Positions 12,814 to 44,296 are shown, numbered from the stretch's first letter. The stretch is DNA of 47,318 bases from an uncultured Clostridia bacterium (GCA_944391825.1 CALXUZ010000002.1:1-47318); one strand, 5' to 3'. Numbers and translations are program-made. Notes: a model not told the origin generated them from the letters alone.

Positions 12814-12860
12814 GGGGACGGGTCCCAGTCACCCTATTTAGGGTGACTTAGGGACGCTTC
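12814..12860 (+). repeat. REP-B copy 1: GGGGACGGGTCCC-AGTCACCCTATTTAGGGTGACT-TAGGGACGCTTC
   Basis: The 47-nt nested palindrome recurs at 35584, 40519, 41686 (+) and 41776 (-). Confidence 0.85.
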
Positions 12861-18560: not shown

Positions 18561-20501
18561 ATGAAAAATAAATATATGAACGATGCCATTATAGGTGGCG
18601 GAAATATAACAGCAAGCTATACAGAAAAAGGAGAACTATTAAGGGTAATGTATCCAGCACCAGATTTTAGAAATTGGATAGACGAATTTCTAACAGGTGT
18701 AAAAATAAACGATTCTGGAATTGTTTACTTGCATGATGATATTAATAATCAATATAATCAGTATTATACAGAAAATACAAATGTATTACACACAGAAATT
18801 TTAAATACATATTTTAAATTAAGTGTAAAACAAACTGATTTTGCTATGTTAAATAAAAGTGTATTGATAAAAAAATATGAATTTGAAAACAAAAATAATA
18901 TTGAACTAGAAGTGAATTTTTTAGTACATGCAAAACTATTATCGGATACAAATAATATGGTTGGTTCAGAAATAAAAGAAAATGCTTTGGTACAATATTC
19001 ACATGATTATACCATGTATACATTTTCTAAAAATCCACTACTTAGTTATCAACTAAACGATACTAGTTCAAATATTGTAAGTGGTGTAATCCAAGATAAG
19101 GACTATATTGGTATGTCTAGTGATTCTAGTGTTAGTTATGATATTGGAACATTAAAACCAGGAGAAAAAAAGAAATTTGTACTATTTTTATATTTCAAAA
19201 TAAACGAAGAAAATCAGTCAGAAGTTGCAATAAAAAAAGAATTAGCAGACATTAGAAAATTAGACGAAAACAAAGAAGAACAATCAGTTGAAAAATATTG
19301 GAAAAAATATGTAAAAGACCATATAAACATAGAATTAAAGCCAGAAACAAGCGAATATAATAAAAAATTTAATAAAATATACCAAAGATCAATACTTCTA
19401 TTTCCATTATTAATAAATCATCAAACAGGAGGAATATCTGCAGCAGTAGAAGTGGATGAAAATATAAAAGAGTGTGGAAGATATAGTTATTGCTGGCCAA
19501 GAGATGCGGTTTTTGTAACAAGAGCACTTGACCAAGTAAAAATGATAAAAGAAGCAGAAAAATTTTATAAAGTCTTTTGCAAAAACACACAAAGCAAAAA
19601 TGGTATGTGGGAGCAAAGATTTTTTACAGATTGCAAATTAGCACCTTGTTGGGGATACCAAATAGACGAAACAGCAAGTGTAATATATGGATTATATGAA
19701 CATTATAAAGTAGTAAAAGATGCAAAATTCCTAAAAGACACCTATAAAATGTGTGAAAACGCAACTAAATTTTTAATAAACTATTTAGATAACATTTTTG
19801 GTACAAAAGACAAATCAGATATAGTAAAAAATGAAATAGAAAAAACATATCACACAGAGGATAGAAATAAATTACCAGTAAGCTATGACTTATGGGAAGA
19901 AAATGAAGGTATCCACTTATATTCTTTAGCTTCAATATATGGGGCATTTCAGTCAATGAAAAAAATCCATGAAGTATTAAAACCTGAATTTGAGCCAAAT
20001 AATAGGCTAAAAGTTGAAGCAATAAACAAACTAGAAGCAAAAGTAATTTTATACCAAGAAGAAATAAAAAAATACATTTTAGCAAACTTATATGATACAG
20101 AAACAAAAGCATTTTTGAGAAACAAAACTGATAAAAAAACAGACATTAGCCAATTGGGAATAGTGGTACCATTTGAAATATTTTCACCAAAAGAAAAGAA
20201 AGTGCTAAACACTGTAGAAAAAATAAACATGACAATAAGAACATATACGGGTGGATATTTAAGGTTCGAGCAAGACCATTATATGGGTGGAAACAGTCCA
20301 TGGCCAGTTGCAACATTATGGATGGGCATGTATTACCAAAAGGCGGGAGAAAAAAACAAGGCAAAAGAATGCCTCAAATTTGTTGTAAACACTGCAAACA
20401 AACACGGCTTTTTAGGAGAGCAAGTAGACAATAGCACAATGAGCCCAAACTGGGTAAACGGCCTAGCCTGGTCCCACGCCATGTTCATTTGTCTTAATTA
20501 G
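18561..20501 (+). CDS. glycoside hydrolase family 15 (glucoamylase/glucodextranase-like)
   Basis: CWPRDAVFV, WEENEGIHLYSLA, GYLRFEQDHY, LAWSHAMF (alpha/alpha)6-barrel motifs. Confidence 0.8.
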   Translation: MKNKYMNDAIIGGGNITASYTEKGELLRVMYPAPDFRNWIDEFLTGVKINDSGIVYLHDDINNQYNQYYTENTNVLHTEILNTYFKLSVKQTDFAMLNKSVLIKKYEFENKNNIELEVNFLVHAKLLSDTNNMVGSEIKENALVQYSHDYTMYTFSKNPLLSYQLNDTSSNIVSGVIQDKDYIGMSSDSSVSYDIGTLKPGEKKKFVLFLYFKINEENQSEVAIKKELADIRKLDENKEEQSVEKYWKKYVKDHINIELKPETSEYNKKFNKIYQRSILLFPLLINHQTGGISAAVEVDENIKECGRYSYCWPRDAVFVTRALDQVKMIKEAEKFYKVFCKNTQSKNGMWEQRFFTDCKLAPCWGYQIDETASVIYGLYEHYKVVKDAKFLKDTYKMCENATKFLINYLDNIFGTKDKSDIVKNEIEKTYHTEDRNKLPVSYDLWEENEGIHLYSLASIYGAFQSMKKIHEVLKPEFEPNNRLKVEAINKLEAKVILYQEEIKKYILANLYDTETKAFLRNKTDKKTDISQLGIVVPFEIFSPKEKKVLNTVEKINMTIRTYTGGYLRFEQDHYMGGNSPWPVATLWMGMYYQKAGEKNKAKECLKFVVNTANKHGFLGEQVDNSTMSPNWVNGLAWSHAMFICLN

Positions 20502-20541
20502 GGACAGTCCCCAATCTACCATTTTTGTCTTCGTTGGGGAC
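20501..20541 (-). repeat. REP-A copy 1 (inverted orientation), left flank of the RAYT gene
   Basis: Reverse complement reads GTCCCCAACGAAGACAAAAATGGTAGATTGGGGACTGTCCC; the GH15 stop TAG (20499-20501) abuts it. Confidence 0.85.
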
Positions 20542-20562
20542 AGCCTATTAATAATTTATTAG

Positions 20563-20603
20563 AAAATTTTGGAAAAAATATAGCATATTAGATAAAAATA
20601 TGC
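20563..20603 (+). terminator. rho-independent terminator after GH15
   Basis: AATATAGCATA / TATGCTATATT stem with a T-rich tail. Confidence 0.6.
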
Positions 20604-20723
20604 TATATTTTATATAGTTTAATTAGTCATGTCGATTATTATTTCGCTGGCTAATGCATAGGGGCATATTATTTAGTAAAAAGATTATGATAAGGGAAAT
20701 TGAGAAAGGAGAATAGGAATAGT

Positions 20724-21503
20724 ATGCCACGAATATCTAGAAGGAATAGCATTAACAATAGCAGAATTTATCATATTATTTTGAAAGGAGTAAATGGACA
20801 GGAAATATTTTTTGACGATAATGATAGAATTAAATTTTTGCAACAATTAAAAGATAGAAAAAAAGAATATCAGTATGAAATTTATGCATATGTTTTAATG
20901 AATAATCATATACACTTAATTTTATTTGATAAAGAAAATAGAATGTCTAATATAATGCACAGAATCTGTACATCATACGCACTATATTTTAATCGAAAAT
21001 ATGAAAGAAAAGGACATTTATTTCAAGATAGGTTCAAAAGTAAATGTGTAAATTCTGAAAATTATTTATTGAGATTACAGAGATATATTCATAGAAATCC
21101 TCAAAAAGAAGCAATTGGCAAAATGGAAGAATATAGGTGGAGTAGTTATAAAGAGTATGTATCTGGTGCTCAAATTGCTAATCCTAGTTTCGTTTTGAGT
21201 CTTTTTTCCGAAAATAAATCTAGGGCTGTTGAAATGTTTATTCAATATAACAAACAAAATGAAGAAAAGTATGGAATAGAAGAATTTGAGATTAGAAAAA
21301 AACTAACAGATGAAGAAGCAATAGATAGGATTAAAATGTTGTTAAATACAGAAAATGTATTGTCGATATTGAATTTAAATGCTAAAACAAGAAACAAATA
21401 TATAAAAATAATAGCTGAAGTAGACGGTATATCTTATAAACAAATAGCTAGAATATTGGGTATCAATACAAGAACAATACAAAGAGCAGTAACTGGTAAA
21501 TAA
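20724..21503 (+). CDS. REP-associated tyrosine transposase (RAYT, IS200-like Y1/HUH) with C-terminal HTH tail
   Basis: YHIILKGVNGQEIF, HUH = NNHIHLIL, GHLFQDRFKS, catalytic-Tyr helix LQRYIHRNPQKEAI; C-end GISYKQIARILGINTRTIQRAV; ATG 20724 follows AAAGGAGA. Confidence 0.8.
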   Translation: MPRISRRNSINNSRIYHIILKGVNGQEIFFDDNDRIKFLQQLKDRKKEYQYEIYAYVLMNNHIHLILFDKENRMSNIMHRICTSYALYFNRKYERKGHLFQDRFKSKCVNSENYLLRLQRYIHRNPQKEAIGKMEEYRWSSYKEYVSGAQIANPSFVLSLFSENKSRAVEMFIQYNKQNEEKYGIEEFEIRKKLTDEEAIDRIKMLLNTENVLSILNLNAKTRNKYIKIIAEVDGISYKQIARILGINTRTIQRAVTGK

Positions 21504-21520
21504 TATTAAAAAAGAAGTGT

Positions 21521-21562
21521 GTCCCTAAAGAAGACAAAAGTGGCACATTGGGGACTGTCCCC
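21521..21562 (+). repeat. REP-A copy 2
   Basis: GTCCCTAAAGAAGACAAAAGTGGCACATTGGGGACTGTCCCC; a partial second unit continues into the radA SD/ATG. Confidence 0.85.
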
Positions 21563-21574
21563 AAAGGAGACAAA

Positions 21575-22930
21575 ATGGCGAAGACGGTGTTTGTATGTAG
21601 TAATTGTGGTTATGAGTCTAGTAAGTGGCTGGGTAAGTGCCCGGGGTGTAATGAGTGGAATTCTTTTTATGAGGAAAAGCTAAATAAGGCAACGGTTAAG
21701 GGAGGAGATAAAAAGAGCAAAGCGGTTAGCCCAAAAGCTTTAAATGAGGTTGTGGGAAAGGATGCCAGCCGTACTCATACAGGAATAGGAGAATTGGATA
21801 GGGTTTTAGGTGGAGGCTTGGTAAAGGGCTCTTTGGTTTTAGTTGGTGGAGAGCCTGGCATTGGAAAGTCTACGCTTATTTTGCAACTTTGTGATAAGGT
21901 TCAAGGAGAAGGCAAGGTTTTATATGTTTCTGGAGAAGAATCTGCAGAGCAAATTAAGCTAAGGGCTGATAGATTGGGAATTCATAATGATGATATTTTG
22001 TTTTTAGGCGAAACAGATATTGAGATGATTGAAAATAATATCTTGGAAATAAATCCAAAGTTGGTTATTATAGATTCAATACAAACTATGTATTCAGAAG
22101 ATATTTCGTCTGCTGCAGGAACTGTGAGCCAAGTGCGTGAGATTACAGCTCGTGTTATGCGTGTTTGCAAAAGCAATGAAATTACCACTATTATAATAGG
22201 ACATGTTACTAAAGAAGGAAATATAGCAGGTCCAAGGGTATTAGAACATATGGTAGATACCGTGCTTTACCTAGAAGGCGAAAGGTACTTTTCGTATAGA
22301 ATTTTGCGTAGTGTTAAAAATCGTTTTGGTTCTACTAATGAAATAGGCATGTTTGAAATGAAAAATGAAGGCATGGTGGAAATTACAAATCCTTCTTCTG
22401 TATTAATATCAGAAAGAGAGGATAATCCACCAGGATCTGTTATTGTAGCGAGTATGGAAGGAACAAGACCGCTTCTTGTTGAATTGCAAGCATTAACAAC
22501 TCCAACAGTATTCGGATTTCCAAGAAGAACTGCAAATGGAATTGATTATAATAGGCTTACAATTTTAGTGGCAGTGTTGGAAAAACGAGCAGGTTTGCAA
22601 CTAGGATCACAGGATATATACTTAAATGTTGTAAGTGGAATAAAAATTAATGAGCCTGCAGTGGATTTAGGTATGGTTATAGTTTGTGCATCAAGCTTTA
22701 AAAACACAAGTATAGATAAAAGAACGGTTATAATAGGCGAAGTTGGCTTGACAGGAGAGGTAAGAGCGGTTAATATGATAGATAAAAGATTAAAAGAAGC
22801 GGAAAAATTGGGCTTTAAGACTTGCGTTATACCAGAAAGTAACAAAAAACTATTGAAAGATAAGTATAATTTAGATATAATAGGTGTCAGAAATGTAAAT
22901 GATGCGATGAGGGCAGTGGAGCTAAAATAG
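21575..22930 (+). CDS. radA: DNA repair protein RadA/Sms
   Basis: Zn finger CSNCGYESSKWLGKCPGCNEW, Walker A GEPGIGKST, KNRFG, Lon-like C-domain; the true start is ATG 21575 (MAKTVFVC), not 21548. Confidence 0.95.
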   Translation: MAKTVFVCSNCGYESSKWLGKCPGCNEWNSFYEEKLNKATVKGGDKKSKAVSPKALNEVVGKDASRTHTGIGELDRVLGGGLVKGSLVLVGGEPGIGKSTLILQLCDKVQGEGKVLYVSGEESAEQIKLRADRLGIHNDDILFLGETDIEMIENNILEINPKLVIIDSIQTMYSEDISSAAGTVSQVREITARVMRVCKSNEITTIIIGHVTKEGNIAGPRVLEHMVDTVLYLEGERYFSYRILRSVKNRFGSTNEIGMFEMKNEGMVEITNPSSVLISEREDNPPGSVIVASMEGTRPLLVELQALTTPTVFGFPRRTANGIDYNRLTILVAVLEKRAGLQLGSQDIYLNVVSGIKINEPAVDLGMVIVCASSFKNTSIDKRTVIIGEVGLTGEVRAVNMIDKRLKEAEKLGFKTCVIPESNKKLLKDKYNLDIIGVRNVNDAMRAVELK

Positions 22931-22939
22931 TTATAACCT

Positions 22940-22981
22940 GTCCCGGATGAAGACAAAAGTGGTAGATTGGGGACTGTCCCC
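22940..22981 (+). repeat. REP-A copy 3
   Basis: GTCCCGGATGAAGACAAAAGTGGTAGATTGGGGACTGTCCCC, followed by the partial unit AAGAAGACAAAAAGGAGG containing the disA SD. Confidence 0.85.
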
Positions 22982-23004
22982 AAGAAGACAAAAAGGAGGA
23001 TGAC

Positions 23005-24106: not shown

Positions 24107-24120
24107 GTCCCTAAAGGAGG
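24107..24120 (+). repeat. REP-A unit fragment GTCCCTAAAGGAGG supplying the SD of the next gene
   Basis: Matches the start of the REP-A unit; ATG lies at 24126. Confidence 0.5.
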
Positions 24121-27381: not shown

Positions 27382-27455
27382 AATATATTCCTTTCGATAA
27401 TATTATGCCATAAAACTGTAAAGAATACAAGATATAATATAGGAGGTAGAAAATT

Positions 27456-27587
27456 ATGAATGAAACAATAAAAAGTTTAATACAAAGAAGAAGTATTTTA
27501 TGGAGCACCTACAGTATAGCTTATCCAGAAGAACAATTACCTGAACCAAAAGAAAGAAAAAAAGACTATGTAATATTTGCAAAATAA
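27456..27587 (+). pseudogene. 43-codon remnant resembling the N-terminus of a nitroreductase-family gene
   Basis: MNETIKSLIQRRSI... is the typical nitroreductase start; strong SD AGGAGG; the ORF stops far too early. Confidence 0.35.
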
Positions 27588-27604
27588 AAATAAATAAAAT
27601 AATC

Positions 27605-27626
27605 GTAGGGGCGACCAGTGGTCGCC
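27605..27626 (+). repeat. REP-like GC hairpin GTAGGGGCGACCAGTGGTCGCC
   Basis: TAGGGGCGAC resembles the REP-B/REP-C half-site TAGGG(T/C)GAC; it forms a GC island in AT-rich spacer. Confidence 0.4.
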
Positions 27627-27665
27627 AGAAAAATCAAAATAAAAAGCAAATTTTAGAAAAAAGTA

Positions 27666-39257: not shown

Positions 39258-39260
39258 TCT

Positions 39261-39301
39261 GTCCCTAAGTAGGACAAAAGTGGTAGATTGGGGACTGTCC
39301 C
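39261..39301 (+). repeat. REP-A copy 5
   Basis: GTCCCTAAGTAGGACAAAAGTGGTAGATTGGGGACTGTCCC. Confidence 0.85.
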
Positions 39302-39340
39302 TAACGAAGACACATATTCAAAAAAATTTTCAAAAAACTA

Positions 39341-39439: not shown

Positions 39440-39887
39440 TTGAGAATATCCGATATGATAGAAGAATTTATTAAAGAAATGTTTTCAGATGATGATGCAT
39501 CTATTGAAATTCAAAGAAATGACTTAGCACAATATTTTAATTGTGTGCCATCACAAATAAACTATGTAATTTCAACAAGATTTAATCCATCACAAGGATA
39601 CTATGTAGAAAGCAAAAGAGGTGGTGGAGGACATATAAAAATTACAAAAGTAAATGTAACAAAAAGCAATTACTTGATGCACGCAATTAGTAGCATTGGA
39701 GACAAGATTACAGCACAAGAAGTTGATATTTTTATTAGTAATTTCCTATCAGAAGGAATTATTTCTCGGAACAGAAGCAAAACTATTAAAAGTAGCAACA
39801 AGTGATAATGTACTGACAGTACCGCAAAATATTAAAGATAACTTGCGAGCAAATATTTTTAAAAATATGTTAATTAATTTAGTATAA
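39440..39887 (+). CDS. ctsR: class III stress-gene repressor CtsR (TTG start). The frame is interrupted and needs a +1 shift at in-frame CGG 39767-39769
   Basis: ORF 39440-39805 (ISDMIEEFIK, VPSQINYVISTRF, SKRGGGGHIKI) continues in ORF 39696-39887 (TEAKLLKVATSDNVL...LRANIFKNML). Confidence 0.85.
39767..39769 (+). other. candidate +1 recoding site: TCT CGG A read as TCT [C] GGA
   Basis: The only in-frame CGG of ctsR, at the frame junction. Confidence 0.4.
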
Positions 39888-39933
39888 ACCAAAGATGATA
39901 CGAAACATAAAATAATTAAGGAGGTTGATTTTT

Positions 39934-40515
39934 ATGTTATGTCAAAATTGTGGAAAAAATGAAGTGACTTTTAGATACACACAAATAATAAATGGTGTAA
40001 AAAAGGAGATGGCACTTTGCGATAAATGTGCCAAAAGTTTAGGACTAGAAAGTTTGGATTTTAATATGCCAATTAATTTTTCAAACTTTTTAGGAGATTT
40101 TTTAAATGGAGCAGTAGATACGGACTTTTTACCAAGCTTTACAAAAACTGGTGTATTGCAATGTGATAATTGTGGTATGACATATAATGAATTTGTAGAT
40201 GCTGGAAAACTTGGCTGTAGTGAGTGCTATGACATATTCTCAAACTTTTTAGATCCAGTTCTTAAAAGTATACACGCATCTGATACACATGTAGGGAGAA
40301 GAAGCAGACTTAGCCTAGCAGATAAAAAAAGAGTTGCAGAAGATATTAAAAAAATTAAAAAAATGAATTCTGAAAATGCAAAAAACGCTAAAAGAGAGGC
40401 TAATAGCAAAGAAGAAAAAATAAAAAAATTAAATGCAGAGTTGAAAACAGCTATTAAAGAAGAAAGATACGAAGACGCAGCTAAAATAAGAGACGAAATC
40501 AAAAAAATGTCTTAG
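39934..40515 (+). CDS. mcsA: McsA (zinc-finger / UVR-motif activator of McsB)
   Basis: CQNCGKNE...CDKCA and CDNCG...CSECY zinc fingers; C-terminal UVR-like EERYEDAAKIRDEI. Confidence 0.85.
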   Translation: MLCQNCGKNEVTFRYTQIINGVKKEMALCDKCAKSLGLESLDFNMPINFSNFLGDFLNGAVDTDFLPSFTKTGVLQCDNCGMTYNEFVDAGKLGCSECYDIFSNFLDPVLKSIHASDTHVGRRSRLSLADKKRVAEDIKKIKKMNSENAKNAKREANSKEEKIKKLNAELKTAIKEERYEDAAKIRDEIKKMS

Positions 40516-40518
40516 TTT

Positions 40519-40561
40519 GGGACAGTCCCCAGTCACCCTATTTAGGGTGACTCAGGGACGC
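40519..40561 (+). repeat. hybrid REP: REP-A core (GGGACAGTCCCC) fused to the REP-B central hairpin
   Basis: GGGACAGTCCCCAGTCACCCTATTTAGGGTGACTCAGGGACGC. Confidence 0.8.
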
Positions 40562-40671
40562 ATCTACATTTAAAAACAAATTATTATTGCTAGGAAAAGC
40601 AAAAAATAGTGCCAAAGTTATCTTAATTGTGGACAGACTTTAACAAGGGCAAAAAAGAAGGAGGAGAGAAT

Positions 40672-41688
40672 ATGCAAAATTGGTATTTACAAAATGGTAA
40701 AGATTCAGATGTGGTAATAAGTTCAAGAGTTAGACTAGCTAGAAATTTAATGGATATTCCATTTCCAACAAAGTTTACAAAGGAGCAAGCTAAAAAGGTT
40801 TTAGAAAGAGTAAAAGAAATTACACCAAGTATTGGTTATGGGCTAAAGTTCATAAACCTAAATGACTTGGATGATATTACAAAAGTAAGCCTAGTGGAAA
40901 AGCATGTAATTAGTCCAGAGTTTGCTATGAATAAACAAAAAATAGGTGGTATGGTTATAAATGATGAGGAAAATATTTGCATGATGATAAATGAAGAAGA
41001 CCATATTCATATTCAGGTTTTTAGCTCTGGATTGGACCTAGAAAATTTGAAAAATTTAGCTATTGAAATAGATGAAAAATTAGATAATATGGTAAATTAT
41101 GCTAGCCATGAAAAATATGGGTATTTAACTTCCTGCCCAACAAATGTTGGAACAGCGATGAAGGCATCTGTAATGGTGCATTTGCCAGCATTAACAATGA
41201 CAGGAAATATTGGAAAAATATTTAATATTGTCAATGGCTTTGGCATGAATATTCGTGGAATTTATGGAGAAGGCACACAAAGCCAAGGAGATATTTATCA
41301 AATTTCTAATAAACAATCACTTGGAATTACAGAAAATGATATTATTAAGAATTTAAATATTATTACAGAAAGAGTAATTGAACAAGAAAGGATGGCAAGA
41401 AAATATTTAGCTAAAAATTCAATAGACTTAGAAGATAGAGTTTACCGCGCATATGGAACTTTGGCATATGCAACAAAACTTTCATCTGATGAGTGTAAAA
41501 AACTGCTTTCATATGTAAAATTGGGAACGGATTTGGGAATAATTAAAGAATTAAATGATAGCAAAATATCAAAGTTATATTTATACAACCAACCTGCAAA
41601 TTTACAGAAGTATGTAGGAAAACCACTAGATGGATATGAGAGGGAAATTAAGAGACCAGAAGTGATTAAAGAGATAATGTCAGCTTAG
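40672..41688 (+). CDS. mcsB: protein arginine kinase McsB
   Basis: ATP:guanido phosphotransferase domain (SSRVRLARNL, NEEDHIHIQ, TSCPTNVGT). Confidence 0.95.
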   Translation: MQNWYLQNGKDSDVVISSRVRLARNLMDIPFPTKFTKEQAKKVLERVKEITPSIGYGLKFINLNDLDDITKVSLVEKHVISPEFAMNKQKIGGMVINDEENICMMINEEDHIHIQVFSSGLDLENLKNLAIEIDEKLDNMVNYASHEKYGYLTSCPTNVGTAMKASVMVHLPALTMTGNIGKIFNIVNGFGMNIRGIYGEGTQSQGDIYQISNKQSLGITENDIIKNLNIITERVIEQERMARKYLAKNSIDLEDRVYRAYGTLAYATKLSSDECKKLLSYVKLGTDLGIIKELNDSKISKLYLYNQPANLQKYVGKPLDGYEREIKRPEVIKEIMSA

Positions 41689-41733
41689 GGACGGGTCCCA
41701 GTCGCCCTAATTAGGGCGACTAGGGGACGCTTC
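41686..41733 (+). repeat. REP-B copy 4 (overlaps the mcsB stop TAG)
   Basis: TAGGGACGGGTCCCAGTCGCCCTAATTAGGGCGACTAGGGGACGCTTC; compensatory A-T to G-C change. Confidence 0.85.
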
Positions 41734-41775
41734 ATAATAGTTATAAATAATATAATAAATTAAAGATTTGGAGGA

Positions 41776-41821
41776 GAAGCGTCCCAACTCACCCTATTTA
41801 GGGTGAGTGGGACCCGTCCCC
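41776..41821 (-). repeat. REP-B copy 5 (inverted); forms a REPIN-like doublet with copy 4
   Basis: GAAGCGTCCCAACTCACCCTATTTAGGGTGAGTGGGACCCGTCCCC; compensatory G-C to C-G change. Confidence 0.85.
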
Positions 41822-41845
41822 AATCAGGAAAGGAAGTGTATTATT

Positions 41846-44296
41846 ATGATGTATAAATTTACAAATAGAGCTGAAAAAGCCTTGGAATTTGCGGCAGAGC
41901 TTGCTGCAGAATTTGGACATAATTATATTGGAACAGAACATATTTTATATGGCTTGGCAAAAGAAGGTACAGGTGTTGCAAGCAAAGTATTAGAAATGCA
42001 AAACATTACCCCTGACGAGATTGCACAGGAAATTGACAATTTAATAGGCAGAGGAGAAGAGATTGAGGATATTTCTGATATTGGTTTTACACCTAGAAGC
42101 AAAAGAGTAATTGAAAGTGCTTTTATAGAGTCTAGAAAATTAGGCTCTGAATTTATCGGAACAGAACATTTACTAATTGGTATTATGCGTGAAGGTGATA
42201 GTGTTGCTGTTCGTATTATGATGGATTTAAATGTAAGCCCACAAAAATTATACAATGAAATTATTAAGGTTATTAACGAAGATGATAATGCTAGTATGCC
42301 TGATAGACAGGGAAATAACAAAGCGCGTGGCAGTTTTAACCAAACTCCAACACTAAATCAATTTGGTACAGACTTAACTAAAAGAGCAGAGGAAGGAAAA
42401 CTAGATCCAATTATAGGAAGAAAAAACGAGATAGAAAGAGTTATACAAATTCTATCAAGAAGAACTAAAAATAACCCATGTTTAATTGGTGAGCCCGGTG
42501 TTGGTAAGACTGCGGTAGCAGAAGGGTTAGCCGAAAAAATAGTTTCAGCTAATGTGCCAGAGATGTTAAAAAATAAAAGAGTTGTAAGCCTAGATATTGC
42601 AAGCATGGTGGCTGGCGCAAAATACCGTGGAGATTTTGAGGAAAGAATAAAAAAATGCCTAGAAGAAGTTAAAAAAGCAGGAGATGTTATATTATTTATA
42701 GATGAAGTTCATACTATTGTTGGTGCTGGCTCTGCAGAAGGTGCAGTTGATGCTGCAAATATTTTAAAACCACTATTAGCAAGGGGAGAAGTACAAGTTA
42801 TAGGTGCTACAACCTTGAATGAATACCGTAAATATATTGAAAAAGATAGTGCATTAGAAAGAAGATTTTGCCCAGTAACAGTTGGAGAGCCAACAGAGGA
42901 AGAAACAATACAAATATTAAAAGGTATTCGTGATAAATATGAGGCACATCATAATGTAAAAATTACAGATGAGGCAATAAGAGCAGCAGTGGAATTATCT
43001 ACAAGATATATTAATGATAGATTTTTACCAGATAAGGCAATAGATTTAGTTGATGAGGCAGCATCCCGTGTAAAAATGAGAACTTATACACAGCCAGATG
43101 TTCTAAAAAAATTAGAGGATAAAATTGCGGAAATAGGAAAAGAAAAAGAAGAAGCAATTCGTAGCCAAGACTTTGAAAAGGCTGCAAGTCTTCGTGATAA
43201 AGAAAGAGAGCAAAAAGAAAAACTAGAAAAAGAGACTGAAAAATGGAAAAACAAAAACAATAAAAATGTAACAGCATTAACAGAAGAGGACATTGCAGAA
43301 GTTGTGGCAAGTTGGACAGGTGTTCCTGTACAAAGATTAACACAAAGTGAAAATGAAAAACTTAAAAATCTAGAGCAAACATTGCATAAAAGGGTAATAG
43401 GACAAAATGAAGCAGTAGATGCTGTGGCAAAAGCAATTAGAAGGGGCAGAGTAGGGCTAAAAGACCCTAACCACCCAATAGGTTCATTTCTATTTTTGGG
43501 TCCAACTGGTGTTGGTAAAACAGAACTTTCAAAGGCATTGGCAGAAGCATTATTTGGAAACGAAGAAGCTATGATACGTATTGATATGTCTGAATATATG
43601 GAGCCACACTCAGTTGCAAAATTAATTGGTTCACCTCCAGGATATGTTGGGTTTGATGAAGGTGGACAGTTAACAGAAAAAGTTAGAAGAAAACCATATT
43701 CTGTTATATTATTTGATGAAGTAGAAAAAGCCCACCCAGATGTTATGAATATGTTACTTCAAATTTTAGACGATGGACGATTAACTGATAGCCAAGGAAG
43801 AACTGTAAACTTTAAAAATACTGTTATAATAATGACATCCAATATTGGTGCAAGGCTAATTACAGATAAAAACACTTTGGGATTTTCTGCATCAAGTGAC
43901 AAAAAAGAAGAAACACAAAAAGAATATGAAAACATTAAAAAAGATGTTATGGGAGAGCTAAAAAAACAATTTAGACCAGAATTTATAAACCGTATTGATG
44001 AAATTATTGTATTCCACAAATTAAATGATGAAGATGTAAAACAAATAATTGACATTATGTTAAAACAAGTTGAAAAACGTATGAAAGAGCAAGATATTGA
44101 AATAGAACTTGATGATAGTGTAAAAGACTTAATTGCTAAAAAAGGTGTGGATACAAATTATGGGGCAAGACCACTTAAAAGGACTATTCAAAACATATTA
44201 GAAGATAGAATTGCAGAAGCAATTTTAGATGGAGAAATAAAGCCACATAAATTGGCTAAAATAAGTGCAAAAGATGAAAAGCTGATTATAGAGTAG
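41846..44296 (+). CDS. clpC: ATP-dependent Clp protease ATP-binding subunit ClpC
   Basis: Clp_N repeats, two AAA+ modules ([16 protein letters not shown]), UVR motif; the true start is ATG 41846 ([13 protein letters not shown]), not 41807. Confidence 0.95.

Follow-up and report, generated by a model that had tools for sequence, protein, structure and literature searches.

A probable TIRtron in an uncultured Clostridia bacterium: a Y1 HUH nuclease gene between inverted copies of a dispersed hairpin repeat

A Y1 HUH nuclease gene that has a short repeat on either side, in inverted orientation, and the recurrence of this repeat in the surrounding spacers raise the question of what kind of system one is looking at: an insertion sequence, a counterpart of the repetitive extragenic palindromic (REP) systems of proteobacteria, or host palindromes that have nothing to do with the nuclease. 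We examined such a locus in a stretch of 47,318 nt from an uncultured Clostridia bacterium (GCA_944391825.1, CALXUZ010000002.1:1-47318; hereafter the window), for which an initial annotation had proposed a REPtron, i.e. a REP-associated tyrosine transposase (RAYT) gene with its REPs. In our view the locus is probably a TIRtron, a single-copy and vertically inherited class-2 Y1 HUH nuclease gene lying between inverted copies of its cognate repeat, with the repeat spread as a mosaic similar to bacterial interspersed mosaic elements (BIMEs). RAYT-like genes between inverted repeats were named TIRYT/TIRtron by Di Nocera, De Gregorio and Rocco in 2013 (PMC3733652), and the gene type itself is therefore already described; new are the covarying hairpin flanks, a 36-nt mosaic with strain polymorphism and a repeat core found across phyla.

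The Y1-HTH protein and its locus

The central features of the locus, in window coordinates, are the following.

20488-20542, - strand: upstream flank, type A repeat in inverted orientation, beginning at the stop codon of the GH15 gene
20577-20612, + strand: palindrome AATATAGCATAT-N-ATATGCTATATTTT, located 3' of the upstream repeat and 5' of the Y1 gene
20724-21503, + strand: Y1 HUH nuclease gene, 259 aa; Y1 core at residues ~1-145, then a helical C-terminal extension with a helix-turn-helix (HTH) at ~229-257
21520-21574, + strand: downstream flank, type A repeat, forming an inverted repeat with the upstream flank; the radA ATG is at 21575

The protein matches the Pfam family Y1_Tnp (E 9.9e-13, residues 15-125) and, in its tail, HTH_23 (E 1.7e-5, residues 229-255), the latter with 25.0 bits just above the gathering score of 24.6. 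Most of its 1191 homologs are 250-290 aa long, and the few with a named source come from Clostridia and Bacilli. In a family alignment of 29 relatives with identities down to 39%, the HUH residues H62 and H64, Y121 of RYIHxNP, and G97 and F100 of GHLFQ are invariant, as is a W-S-S motif past the tyrosine (W139-S140-S141). Because the HUH and tyrosine residues are strictly invariant, the protein is predicted to be a working nuclease. The sequence R-Y121-IHRNP contains the Y-x3-NP signature that defines class 2 (PMC6006769), and the C-terminal HTH (GIS..QIARI.GI....I.RA) is conserved across the alignment. Both the IS200/RAYT motifs and the HTH-like tail pointed out in the initial annotation are real.

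Structural comparison points to the E. coli enzyme TnpA-REP. A PDB search with the single sequence matched no Y1 structure and the family profile was needed, with which 4ER8 (E. coli TnpA-REP) was the sole Y1 structure matched (E 1.3e-4). The AlphaFold (AF2) model has a mean predicted local distance difference test (pLDDT) score of 86.8, its tail being modelled as helices with pLDDT of ~85-92. Using Foldseek, 4ER8_A was the best match (E 1.4e-6, template modelling score 0.67, root-mean-square deviation 2.6 over 140 columns), followed by the IS200, IS608 and ISDra2 transposases.

The flanking arms form a 55-nt inverted repeat with 84% complementarity, which bears out the inverted REP-like flanks described initially, a layout that holds across the family. 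Upstream, linker A separates a full core GGGAC-A-GTCCC (20501-20511) from a half-core GGGAC at 20537. Downstream, the order is half-core GTCCC (21521), linker A, core GGGAC-T-GTCCC (21551-21561) and a tail, in which AAAGGAG (21563-21569) is positioned as the radA ribosome-binding site. The sequence GGGGACAG, found at 20536-20543 (+) and 21555-21562 (-), fits the motif GGGGWSAS published for TIRYT flanks (PMC3733652), whereas the form found in most relatives is GGGGACGG, which departs from that consensus at one position. Since flanks of the TIRYT lineage share GGGGWSAS, the repeat motif, which the initial annotation did not recognise, is not unknown.

The window has a GC content of 30.7%, and its + strand shows a strong excess of G over C and holds 37 of the 40 long open reading frames (ORFs). 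The neighbours of the Y1 gene are a GH15 glycoside hydrolase gene upstream and radA-disA downstream; no tnpB partner is found among them, in line with the initial annotation. Gene order GH15-Y1-radA-disA is kept in the orthologous loci L007 (64% protein identity) and L008 (52%), the context is identical in all recovered contigs with the exact Y1 protein, and the same locus is present in the metagenome-assembled genome (MAG) GCA_947857065.1 and several metagenome assemblies. Only one Y1 gene copy occurs in the ~65 kb made up of the window and neighbouring contigs. With its position held in relatives at 64% and 52% identity, the Y1 gene is fixed and not moving.

The palindrome at 20577-20612 is also kept in L007 and L008 and thus in three species including the window, as is a GGGG(C/A)AT box just 5' of the ribosome-binding site of the Y1 gene. 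The palindrome may be a GH15 terminator or an autoregulatory operator. Scanning the locus for promoters and terminators returned no signal above chance level. In Clostridium aceticum (CP009687, L010 6001-9508; 41% identity) the Y1-HTH gene lies directly upstream of comM-dprA (comM being Mg-chelatase-like); neighbours of the gene are thus DNA-processing or recombination genes both there and in the window (radA), which may be coincidence.

These data bear on the possibility of an ordinary autonomous IS200/IS605 insertion sequence with TnpA only. Pfam describes Y1_Tnp as 'Transposase IS200 like', and the fold resembles that of the IS608 and ISDra2 TnpA proteins. However, the NCBIfam model transpos_IS200 scores 15 bits against a cutoff of 55 whereas REP_Tyr_transpos (NF047646) reaches 65.4 bits (curated cutoff 80), so that the profile scores speak against a grouping with IS200. 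The Y-x3-NP signature is that of class 2, and the window protein has ~115 extra C-terminal residues relative to IS200/IS605 TnpA. Neither direct-orientation ends nor multiple copies, both expected of IS200/IS605, are seen at this locus; instead the flank hairpins are inverted and the gene sits in a single context, its position kept down to 52% identity. An IS200/IS605 element is highly improbable in our judgement, and the comparison supports a TnpA-REP/RAYT-like Y1 enzyme as predicted from sequence.

Flank hairpins across the family

Inverted GGGAC-containing repeats lie on both sides of the gene in L007, L008 and C. aceticum, their inner sequence being lineage-specific. For more distant relatives, we used a set of 61 metagenome loci with both flanks present (33-47% identity). 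An upstream/downstream inverted repeat was seen in ~42 of them, nearly always with GGGGAC and usually in the form ACAAGGGGACGGTTCTnTTGT. Its position relative to the gene is well defined: the maximum for GGGGAC lies at -75 to -50 relative to the start codon (26 loci), that for GTCCCC at 0 to +50 past the stop (33 loci).

Covariation was analyzed in a gap-free alignment of 47 flank elements from the 61 relatives, preselected for GGGACGGTT. These elements share a common hairpin with a 12-bp stem and the 5-nt loop ACGGT, in which the tip GGG-ACGGT-TCT is invariant. Paired cells amount to 81% compared with 62% in shuffles (none of 500 shuffles reaches 81%), and the covariation score is 0.50 compared with 0.18 in shuffles and 0.10-0.18 in slid controls. 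At least 20 double-sided changes are found at three stem pairs. The tip pairs are invariant, two of them being G.T. Further, of 92 flanks, 72 fold better on the G-rich strand and 18 on its complement (p 9e-9). The flanks are covarying, strand-asymmetric hairpins in an inverted layout that is family-wide. What is conserved of the repeat is the small hairpin tip GGGG-ACNGT-YCYY, which in the window genome is the perfect palindrome GGGAC-N1-2-GTCCC. As the two flank hairpins lie on opposite strands, the layout is that of a REPtron and not that of IS200/IS605.

The HTH tail and the palindromic core suggest another explanation, namely that the protein is a DNA-binding regulator or replication factor whose HTH, related to DnaA domain IV, binds double-stranded core operators with no strand transfer. 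The tail is conserved family-wide, the perfect 11-12-bp palindrome of the core is suited to a dimer, and the stretch that separates the upstream repeat from the gene contains a conserved palindrome. DnaA-like tails have also been suggested as a possible means of targeting the replication fork, although the motif is unlike DnaA boxes (PMC6006769). On the other hand, a pure binder would not need the invariant catalytic HUH and tyrosine residues, and the core of most relatives is an imperfect palindrome with G.T pairs on one strand only, which points to single-stranded recognition. We regard a regulator of this kind as quite unlikely.

A dispersed 36-nt mosaic and its turnover

The repeat is not confined to the flanks of the Y1 gene. 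The 12-mer GGGGACTGTCCC, allowing at most one mismatch, occurs 10 times in the window and not once in 100 shuffles, and 11 cores are present in 47 kb against a chance expectation of ~0. The elements share the skeleton GGGAC-N1-2-GTCCC-N22-25-GGGAC with a core of 11-12 bp and linkers, 24-25 nt long, of at least three sequence types. The type A linker is non-palindromic (copies at 20488, 21520, 22939, 30389 and 39260) and the type B linker is the palindrome AGTCACCCTAtttAGGGTGACT. Members outside the Y1 locus are listed below.

12814-12856, + strand: type B, GGGGAC-GG-GTCCC, palindromic linker AGTCACCCTAtttAGGGTGACT, GGGAC; strong hairpin in single-stranded DNA
22939-22993, + strand: type A, radA-disA spacer
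24107-24111, + strand: lone GTCCC, adjoining the ribosome-binding site of a peptidyl-prolyl isomerase (PPIase) gene
30389-30443, + strand: type A, upstream of rimP
35584-35626, + strand: type B, overlapping the last infB codons
39166-39207, + strand: type C with a third linker, GGGGAC-G-GTCCC-N25-GGGAC, just past the dUTPase gene
39260-39314, + strand: type A, upstream of ctsR
40519-40560, + strand: type B, mcsA-mcsB spacer, with a type-A-like tail before the element
41688-41821, both strands: inverted type B pair (41688-41729, +; 41781-41821, -), a REPIN-like doublet in the mcsB-clpC spacer
45682-45718, no strand assigned: simple palindrome with the core at its tip, then a T-run; terminator-like, a form seen in other phyla

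The recurrence initially noted at 22940, 30390 and 39261 is confirmed by full copies, and the repeat is dispersed and strongly intergenic. The sites described as fragments (24107, 39164, 40519, 45692 and 45916) are real as well, but are better seen as other members of a mosaic family with a palindromic linker, a third linker, a simple hairpin or a lone GTCCC. The longest ORFs leave 14% of the window uncovered, and at least 32 of the 46 GGGAC/GTCCC pentamers fall within this part; in our reading, several of the remaining 'coding' pentamers are an artefact of over-extended ORF starts. The 12 same-strand spacings that do not exceed 80 nt all measure 35 or 36 nt, and the corresponding spacing is 37 nt in L007 and 35 nt in L008. 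GTAG accompanies 4 of the 11 window cores, all with the type A linker, and stands next to the hairpin in 2 of the 47 flank elements of relatives. The GTAG that had been taken to echo E. coli REPs is a coincidence of one linker type.

About one third of the window spacers contain an element, including those of the conserved operons radA-disA, rimP-nusA-infB and ctsR-mcsA-mcsB-clpC. In the latter operon (39440-44296) elements precede ctsR and occupy both the mcsA-mcsB and the mcsB-clpC spacer, the inverted pair standing before clpC. The tails of two type A copies (21563-21577 and 30432-30449) read AAAGGAGACAAAA(T/G)TG and supply radA and rimP with a Shine-Dalgarno sequence and the context of the start codon. 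For rimP, the repeat tail gives AAAGGAG and a GTG start, and the longest-ORF call (30388-30966) runs through the repeat. Type B elements fold well as single-stranded DNA (z -6.8 and -5.5), as does the inverted pair (41682-41828, z -9.9).

Dispersal was also followed beyond the window. Extension by neighbouring contigs (~18 kb) added two clusters, giving ~14 cores in 65 kb, and in the related Clostridia MAG CALXVE01 at least three other contigs have type A copies, one per 8-kb stretch. In relatives, extra copies distant from the gene number ~2 per 10 kb, against a chance rate that we estimate at ~0.6 per 10 kb; they often form inverted pairs separated by 35-60 nt. Rfam yielded no family match for the repeats, and the core sequence was not found in the published literature.

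Comparison of conspecific strains (98-99% identity) revealed three differences, each of exactly one 36-nt module. At the lone GTCCC (24107), L003, L004 and L006 have an additional 36 nt and thereby a complete type B element. A type B module present in L209 is absent from L210, and L210 has two tandem type A modules compared with one in L209. For the L209/L210 pair a module parse was used because one loss and one gain cancel in length, making the MAFFT alignment misleading. An IS608-like model, in which each indel reflects a cut exactly 3' of GTCCC, was also considered and dropped since the breakpoints vary between events.

A contig scan for the 17-mer ASATTGGGGACTGTCCC returned more than 115 stretches, mostly from other phyla, of which 115 loci (L012-L126) were examined. 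Among the matches listed, the exact 17-mer is repeated in Coriobacteriia (several MAGs, Collinsella, Enorma), Lachnospiraceae, Oscillospiraceae, several Clostridia MAGs and others, and is almost always the centre of ACATTGGGGAC-T-GTCCCCAATGT with genome-specific stem bases and often A- or T-runs. Many ACATTGGGGACTGTCCCCAATGT palindromes are present in Coriobacteriia, Lachnospiraceae and Oscillospiraceae MAGs. The ACATTGGGGAC-T-GTCCCCAATGT form is multi-copy and often terminator-like among these matches, and makes up tandem arrays with 27-40-nt spacing in some Coriobacteriales contigs. Using tblastn with the Y1 protein and hmmsearch with the family profile, a Y1 homolog was found near only one of the 115 loci, L053. 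In this Kiritimatiellia MAG (JAZTWW01, ~5700-6620, - strand) the Y1 homolog has three CAACTGGGGACAGTCCCC units at its 3' end. Its reading frame runs through the three units, each translated as ..TGDSPQ..

Given this distribution, the repeats might be host structural or regulatory palindromes (terminators, mRNA-stabilising hairpins or sites of another protein) that are independent of Y1 and simply common in spacers, with the indels arising by slippage. Such an explanation would suit their presence in about a third of the window spacers, the two tails acting as Shine-Dalgarno sequences, the variable indel breakpoints, the A-run/hairpin/T-run build of copies in other phyla, which resembles bidirectional terminators, and the lack of Y1 genes near the 115 listed loci other than L053. 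It does not account for inverted GGGGAC hairpins at fixed distances from start and stop in most of the 61 distant relatives, whose contexts are unrelated, or for stems that covary together in each pair. The invariant HUH and tyrosine residues argue for a working nuclease, and the Kiritimatiellia homolog carries three cores at its own 3' end. Overall, we consider host palindromes independent of Y1 an unlikely explanation.

Several neighbouring elements in the window are recorded here as separate observations. Both window ends (1-72 and 47179-47318) diverge from the matching contigs of L209 and L207 and contain inverted GGGGTGACAT copies spaced by 36 and 35 nt, in which GGGGTGAC fits GGGGWSAS. 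This suggests that GGGGTGACAT belongs to a second family of repeats, which might have a Y1 gene of its own, and that the assembly breaks at these repeats. Between mutS2 and rimP, a 2.84-kb segment (27431-30268) is absent from L003, L004 and L006, which have ~72 bp instead. Its ORFs include one that is bAvd-like (29487-29777; Pfam E 2.4e-10) and one of 422 aa (27931-29199) with an N-terminal methylation motif, and L001 has a further insertion of ~330 bp with a MutS_I-like ORF. The segment could be what is left of a diversity-generating retroelement, or a part of one; a reverse transcriptase was not seen there. Finally, an element of ~147 nt (45733-45879) with a perfect 16-nt inverted repeat (CACAATTATATTATGA / TCATAATATAATTGTG) is absent from the GCA_947857065.1 strain (L207) and is found in MAG L070 at 84.5% identity beside a type A repeat. 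It has no Rfam match and looks like a miniature inverted-repeat transposable element or a small RNA gene.

Proposed function and comparison with known systems

For the TIRtron that we favour, a mechanism can be proposed by analogy with E. coli TnpA-REP (PMC3333891, PMC3479197, PMC8266576). The Y1 enzyme would bind the core hairpin in single-stranded DNA, for example at replication forks, and would cut and reseal the DNA close by through Tyr121. Cutting and rejoining could add, remove and shuffle 36-nt modules, while the gene itself would not be excisable, because its flanking hairpins lie on opposite strands, and would stay fixed. The host may co-opt some copies as ribosome-binding sites (radA, rimP) or terminator-like hairpins. 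That the Y1 protein binds, cuts and mobilises these repeats is what we infer from the analogy, and a role of the HTH is likewise inferred.

Several points weigh against this reading. Replication slippage between direct repeats fits the 36-nt indels equally well: on the GGGAC strand the breakpoints lie 1-3 nt 5' of the pentamer at window position 24113 and 3-5 nt 3' of it in L209/L210, and because they are not at one fixed position, enzyme cutting and slippage are indistinguishable. Type A copies fold no better than shuffles (z -1.2 to -2.4) and are therefore not classical REP palindromes. The covariation set was preselected on GGGACGGTT with the hairpin register taken from one member, which biases it towards that hairpin, and upstream and downstream copies of one locus are not independent. 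Dispersal is not universal, since in 12.8 kb of L008 (52% identity) no copies are seen other than the two at the flanks. The copy figure stands at ~14 cores in 65 kb, and hundreds per genome would be an extrapolation. For the other genomes with the same core, the Y1 search covered the surroundings of the 115 repeat loci. Further, the score of 65.4 bits falls short of the 80 bits required for the classical RAYT equivalog (NF047646; subclass 2.2/2.5), and the literature holds no biochemical evidence that we could find for any TIRYT/subclass 2.1 enzyme.

A wider interpretation, which we put forward tentatively and hold to be possible rather than probable, is that subclass 2.1 Y1-HTH proteins are the Gram-positive (and wider) counterpart of RAYTs. 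One ancient hairpin, GGGG-ACNGT-YCYY, would then extend from Bacillota to Actinomycetota and Kiritimatiellota, unlike the lineage-specific REPs of proteobacteria, and the system would be currently active in this Clostridia lineage, with gain and loss of modules and host reuse of copies as ribosome-binding sites and terminators. The locus and its relatives offer concrete substrates, namely an invariant tip with strand-specific G.T pairs, defined linkers and natural 36-nt presence/absence alleles, which make it testable whether subclass 2.1 enzymes mobilise short repeats in Gram-positives. There are consequences for annotation and assembly, too. The repeats lengthen ORF calls (rimP) and create spurious small ORFs, and they may be break points in metagenome assemblies, as the related GGGGTGACAT repeat at both window ends illustrates.

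With respect to classification, TIRYT is probably equivalent to TnpA-Y1 subclass 2.1 according to Quentin et al. 2018 (PMC6006769). This subclass includes 291 of the 292 sequences in RAYT group 1 of Bertels et al. 2017 (PMC6006769, PMC5581495), forms the second-largest Y1 group, found in ~15% of strains, and has C-terminal tails of the HTH_23, HTH_28 and Bac_DnaA_C types (PMC6006769). RAYT group 1 has been noted in Clostridia, with flanking 16-mers in ~12 copies (PMC5581495). The term TIRYT was found in the literature only in PMC3733652 and PMC6006769, and a search for Firmicutes names in the main text of the former returned none, 'Bacill-' appearing only for the unrelated Bcr1 miniature element. 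The window locus combines the traits of class 2 (HUH and Y-x3-NP on a Y1 fold, a fixed low-copy locus, inverted repeat flanks and dispersed intergenic copies) with those of TIRYT/subclass 2.1 (a C-terminal HTH extension and GGGGWSAS flanks). Judged by domain architecture, motifs and flank motif, the gene is predicted to be of the TIRYT / subclass 2.1 / RAYT group 1 type. Of the REPtron proposal, the TnpA-REP-like enzyme, the fixed position and the inverted bracket stand, whereas the gene probably belongs to this known lineage and is not a classical RAYT. A classical GTAG-REP RAYT was rejected on the sub-cutoff score and the lack of a conserved GTAG at the hairpin foot.

The known systems can be ranged by their likeness to the locus. 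With the IS200/IS605 TnpA proteins of IS608 and ISDra2 it shares the HUH/Y1 fold, and these enzymes recognise subterminal hairpins in single-stranded DNA. However, IS200/IS605 elements are mobile and multi-copy, with end hairpins that are direct on one strand, and their TnpA has a different tyrosine motif and no HTH tail.

E. coli TnpA-REP (RayT/YafM; subclass 2.2/RAYT group 2; PMC3333891, PMC3479197, PMC8266576) provides the closest solved structure, 4ER8. Its REPtron likewise consists of a single-copy gene between inverted repeats, with intergenic hairpins that have a short conserved tag and strand-favouring mismatches, and E. coli BIMEs are also mosaics of palindromic units and fixed-length linkers. 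In contrast to E. coli, the window repeats have no GTAG tag and their conserved part is at the hairpin tip and not 5' of the foot, an additional HTH and a score below the RAYT cutoff set the protein apart, and the host is a low-GC member of the Clostridia and not a proteobacterium.

TIRYT/subclass 2.1 systems share with the locus the Y1 core, Y-x3-NP, the serine motif past the tyrosine and an HTH_23-type tail. They are low in copy number and have inverted flanks at short, similar distances, many of which carry GGGGWSAS (here GGGGACAG), and the flank repeats of some genomes are also dispersed as families of moderate abundance (PMC3733652). The published flanks, though, are described as terminal inverted repeats, and REP-like sequences or secondary structures were reported not to be found near subclass 2.1 genes (PMC6006769), whereas the Firmicute-type relatives described here have covarying hairpins with an invariant tip and the window genome contains a dense mosaic of 36-nt period that is polymorphic between strains.

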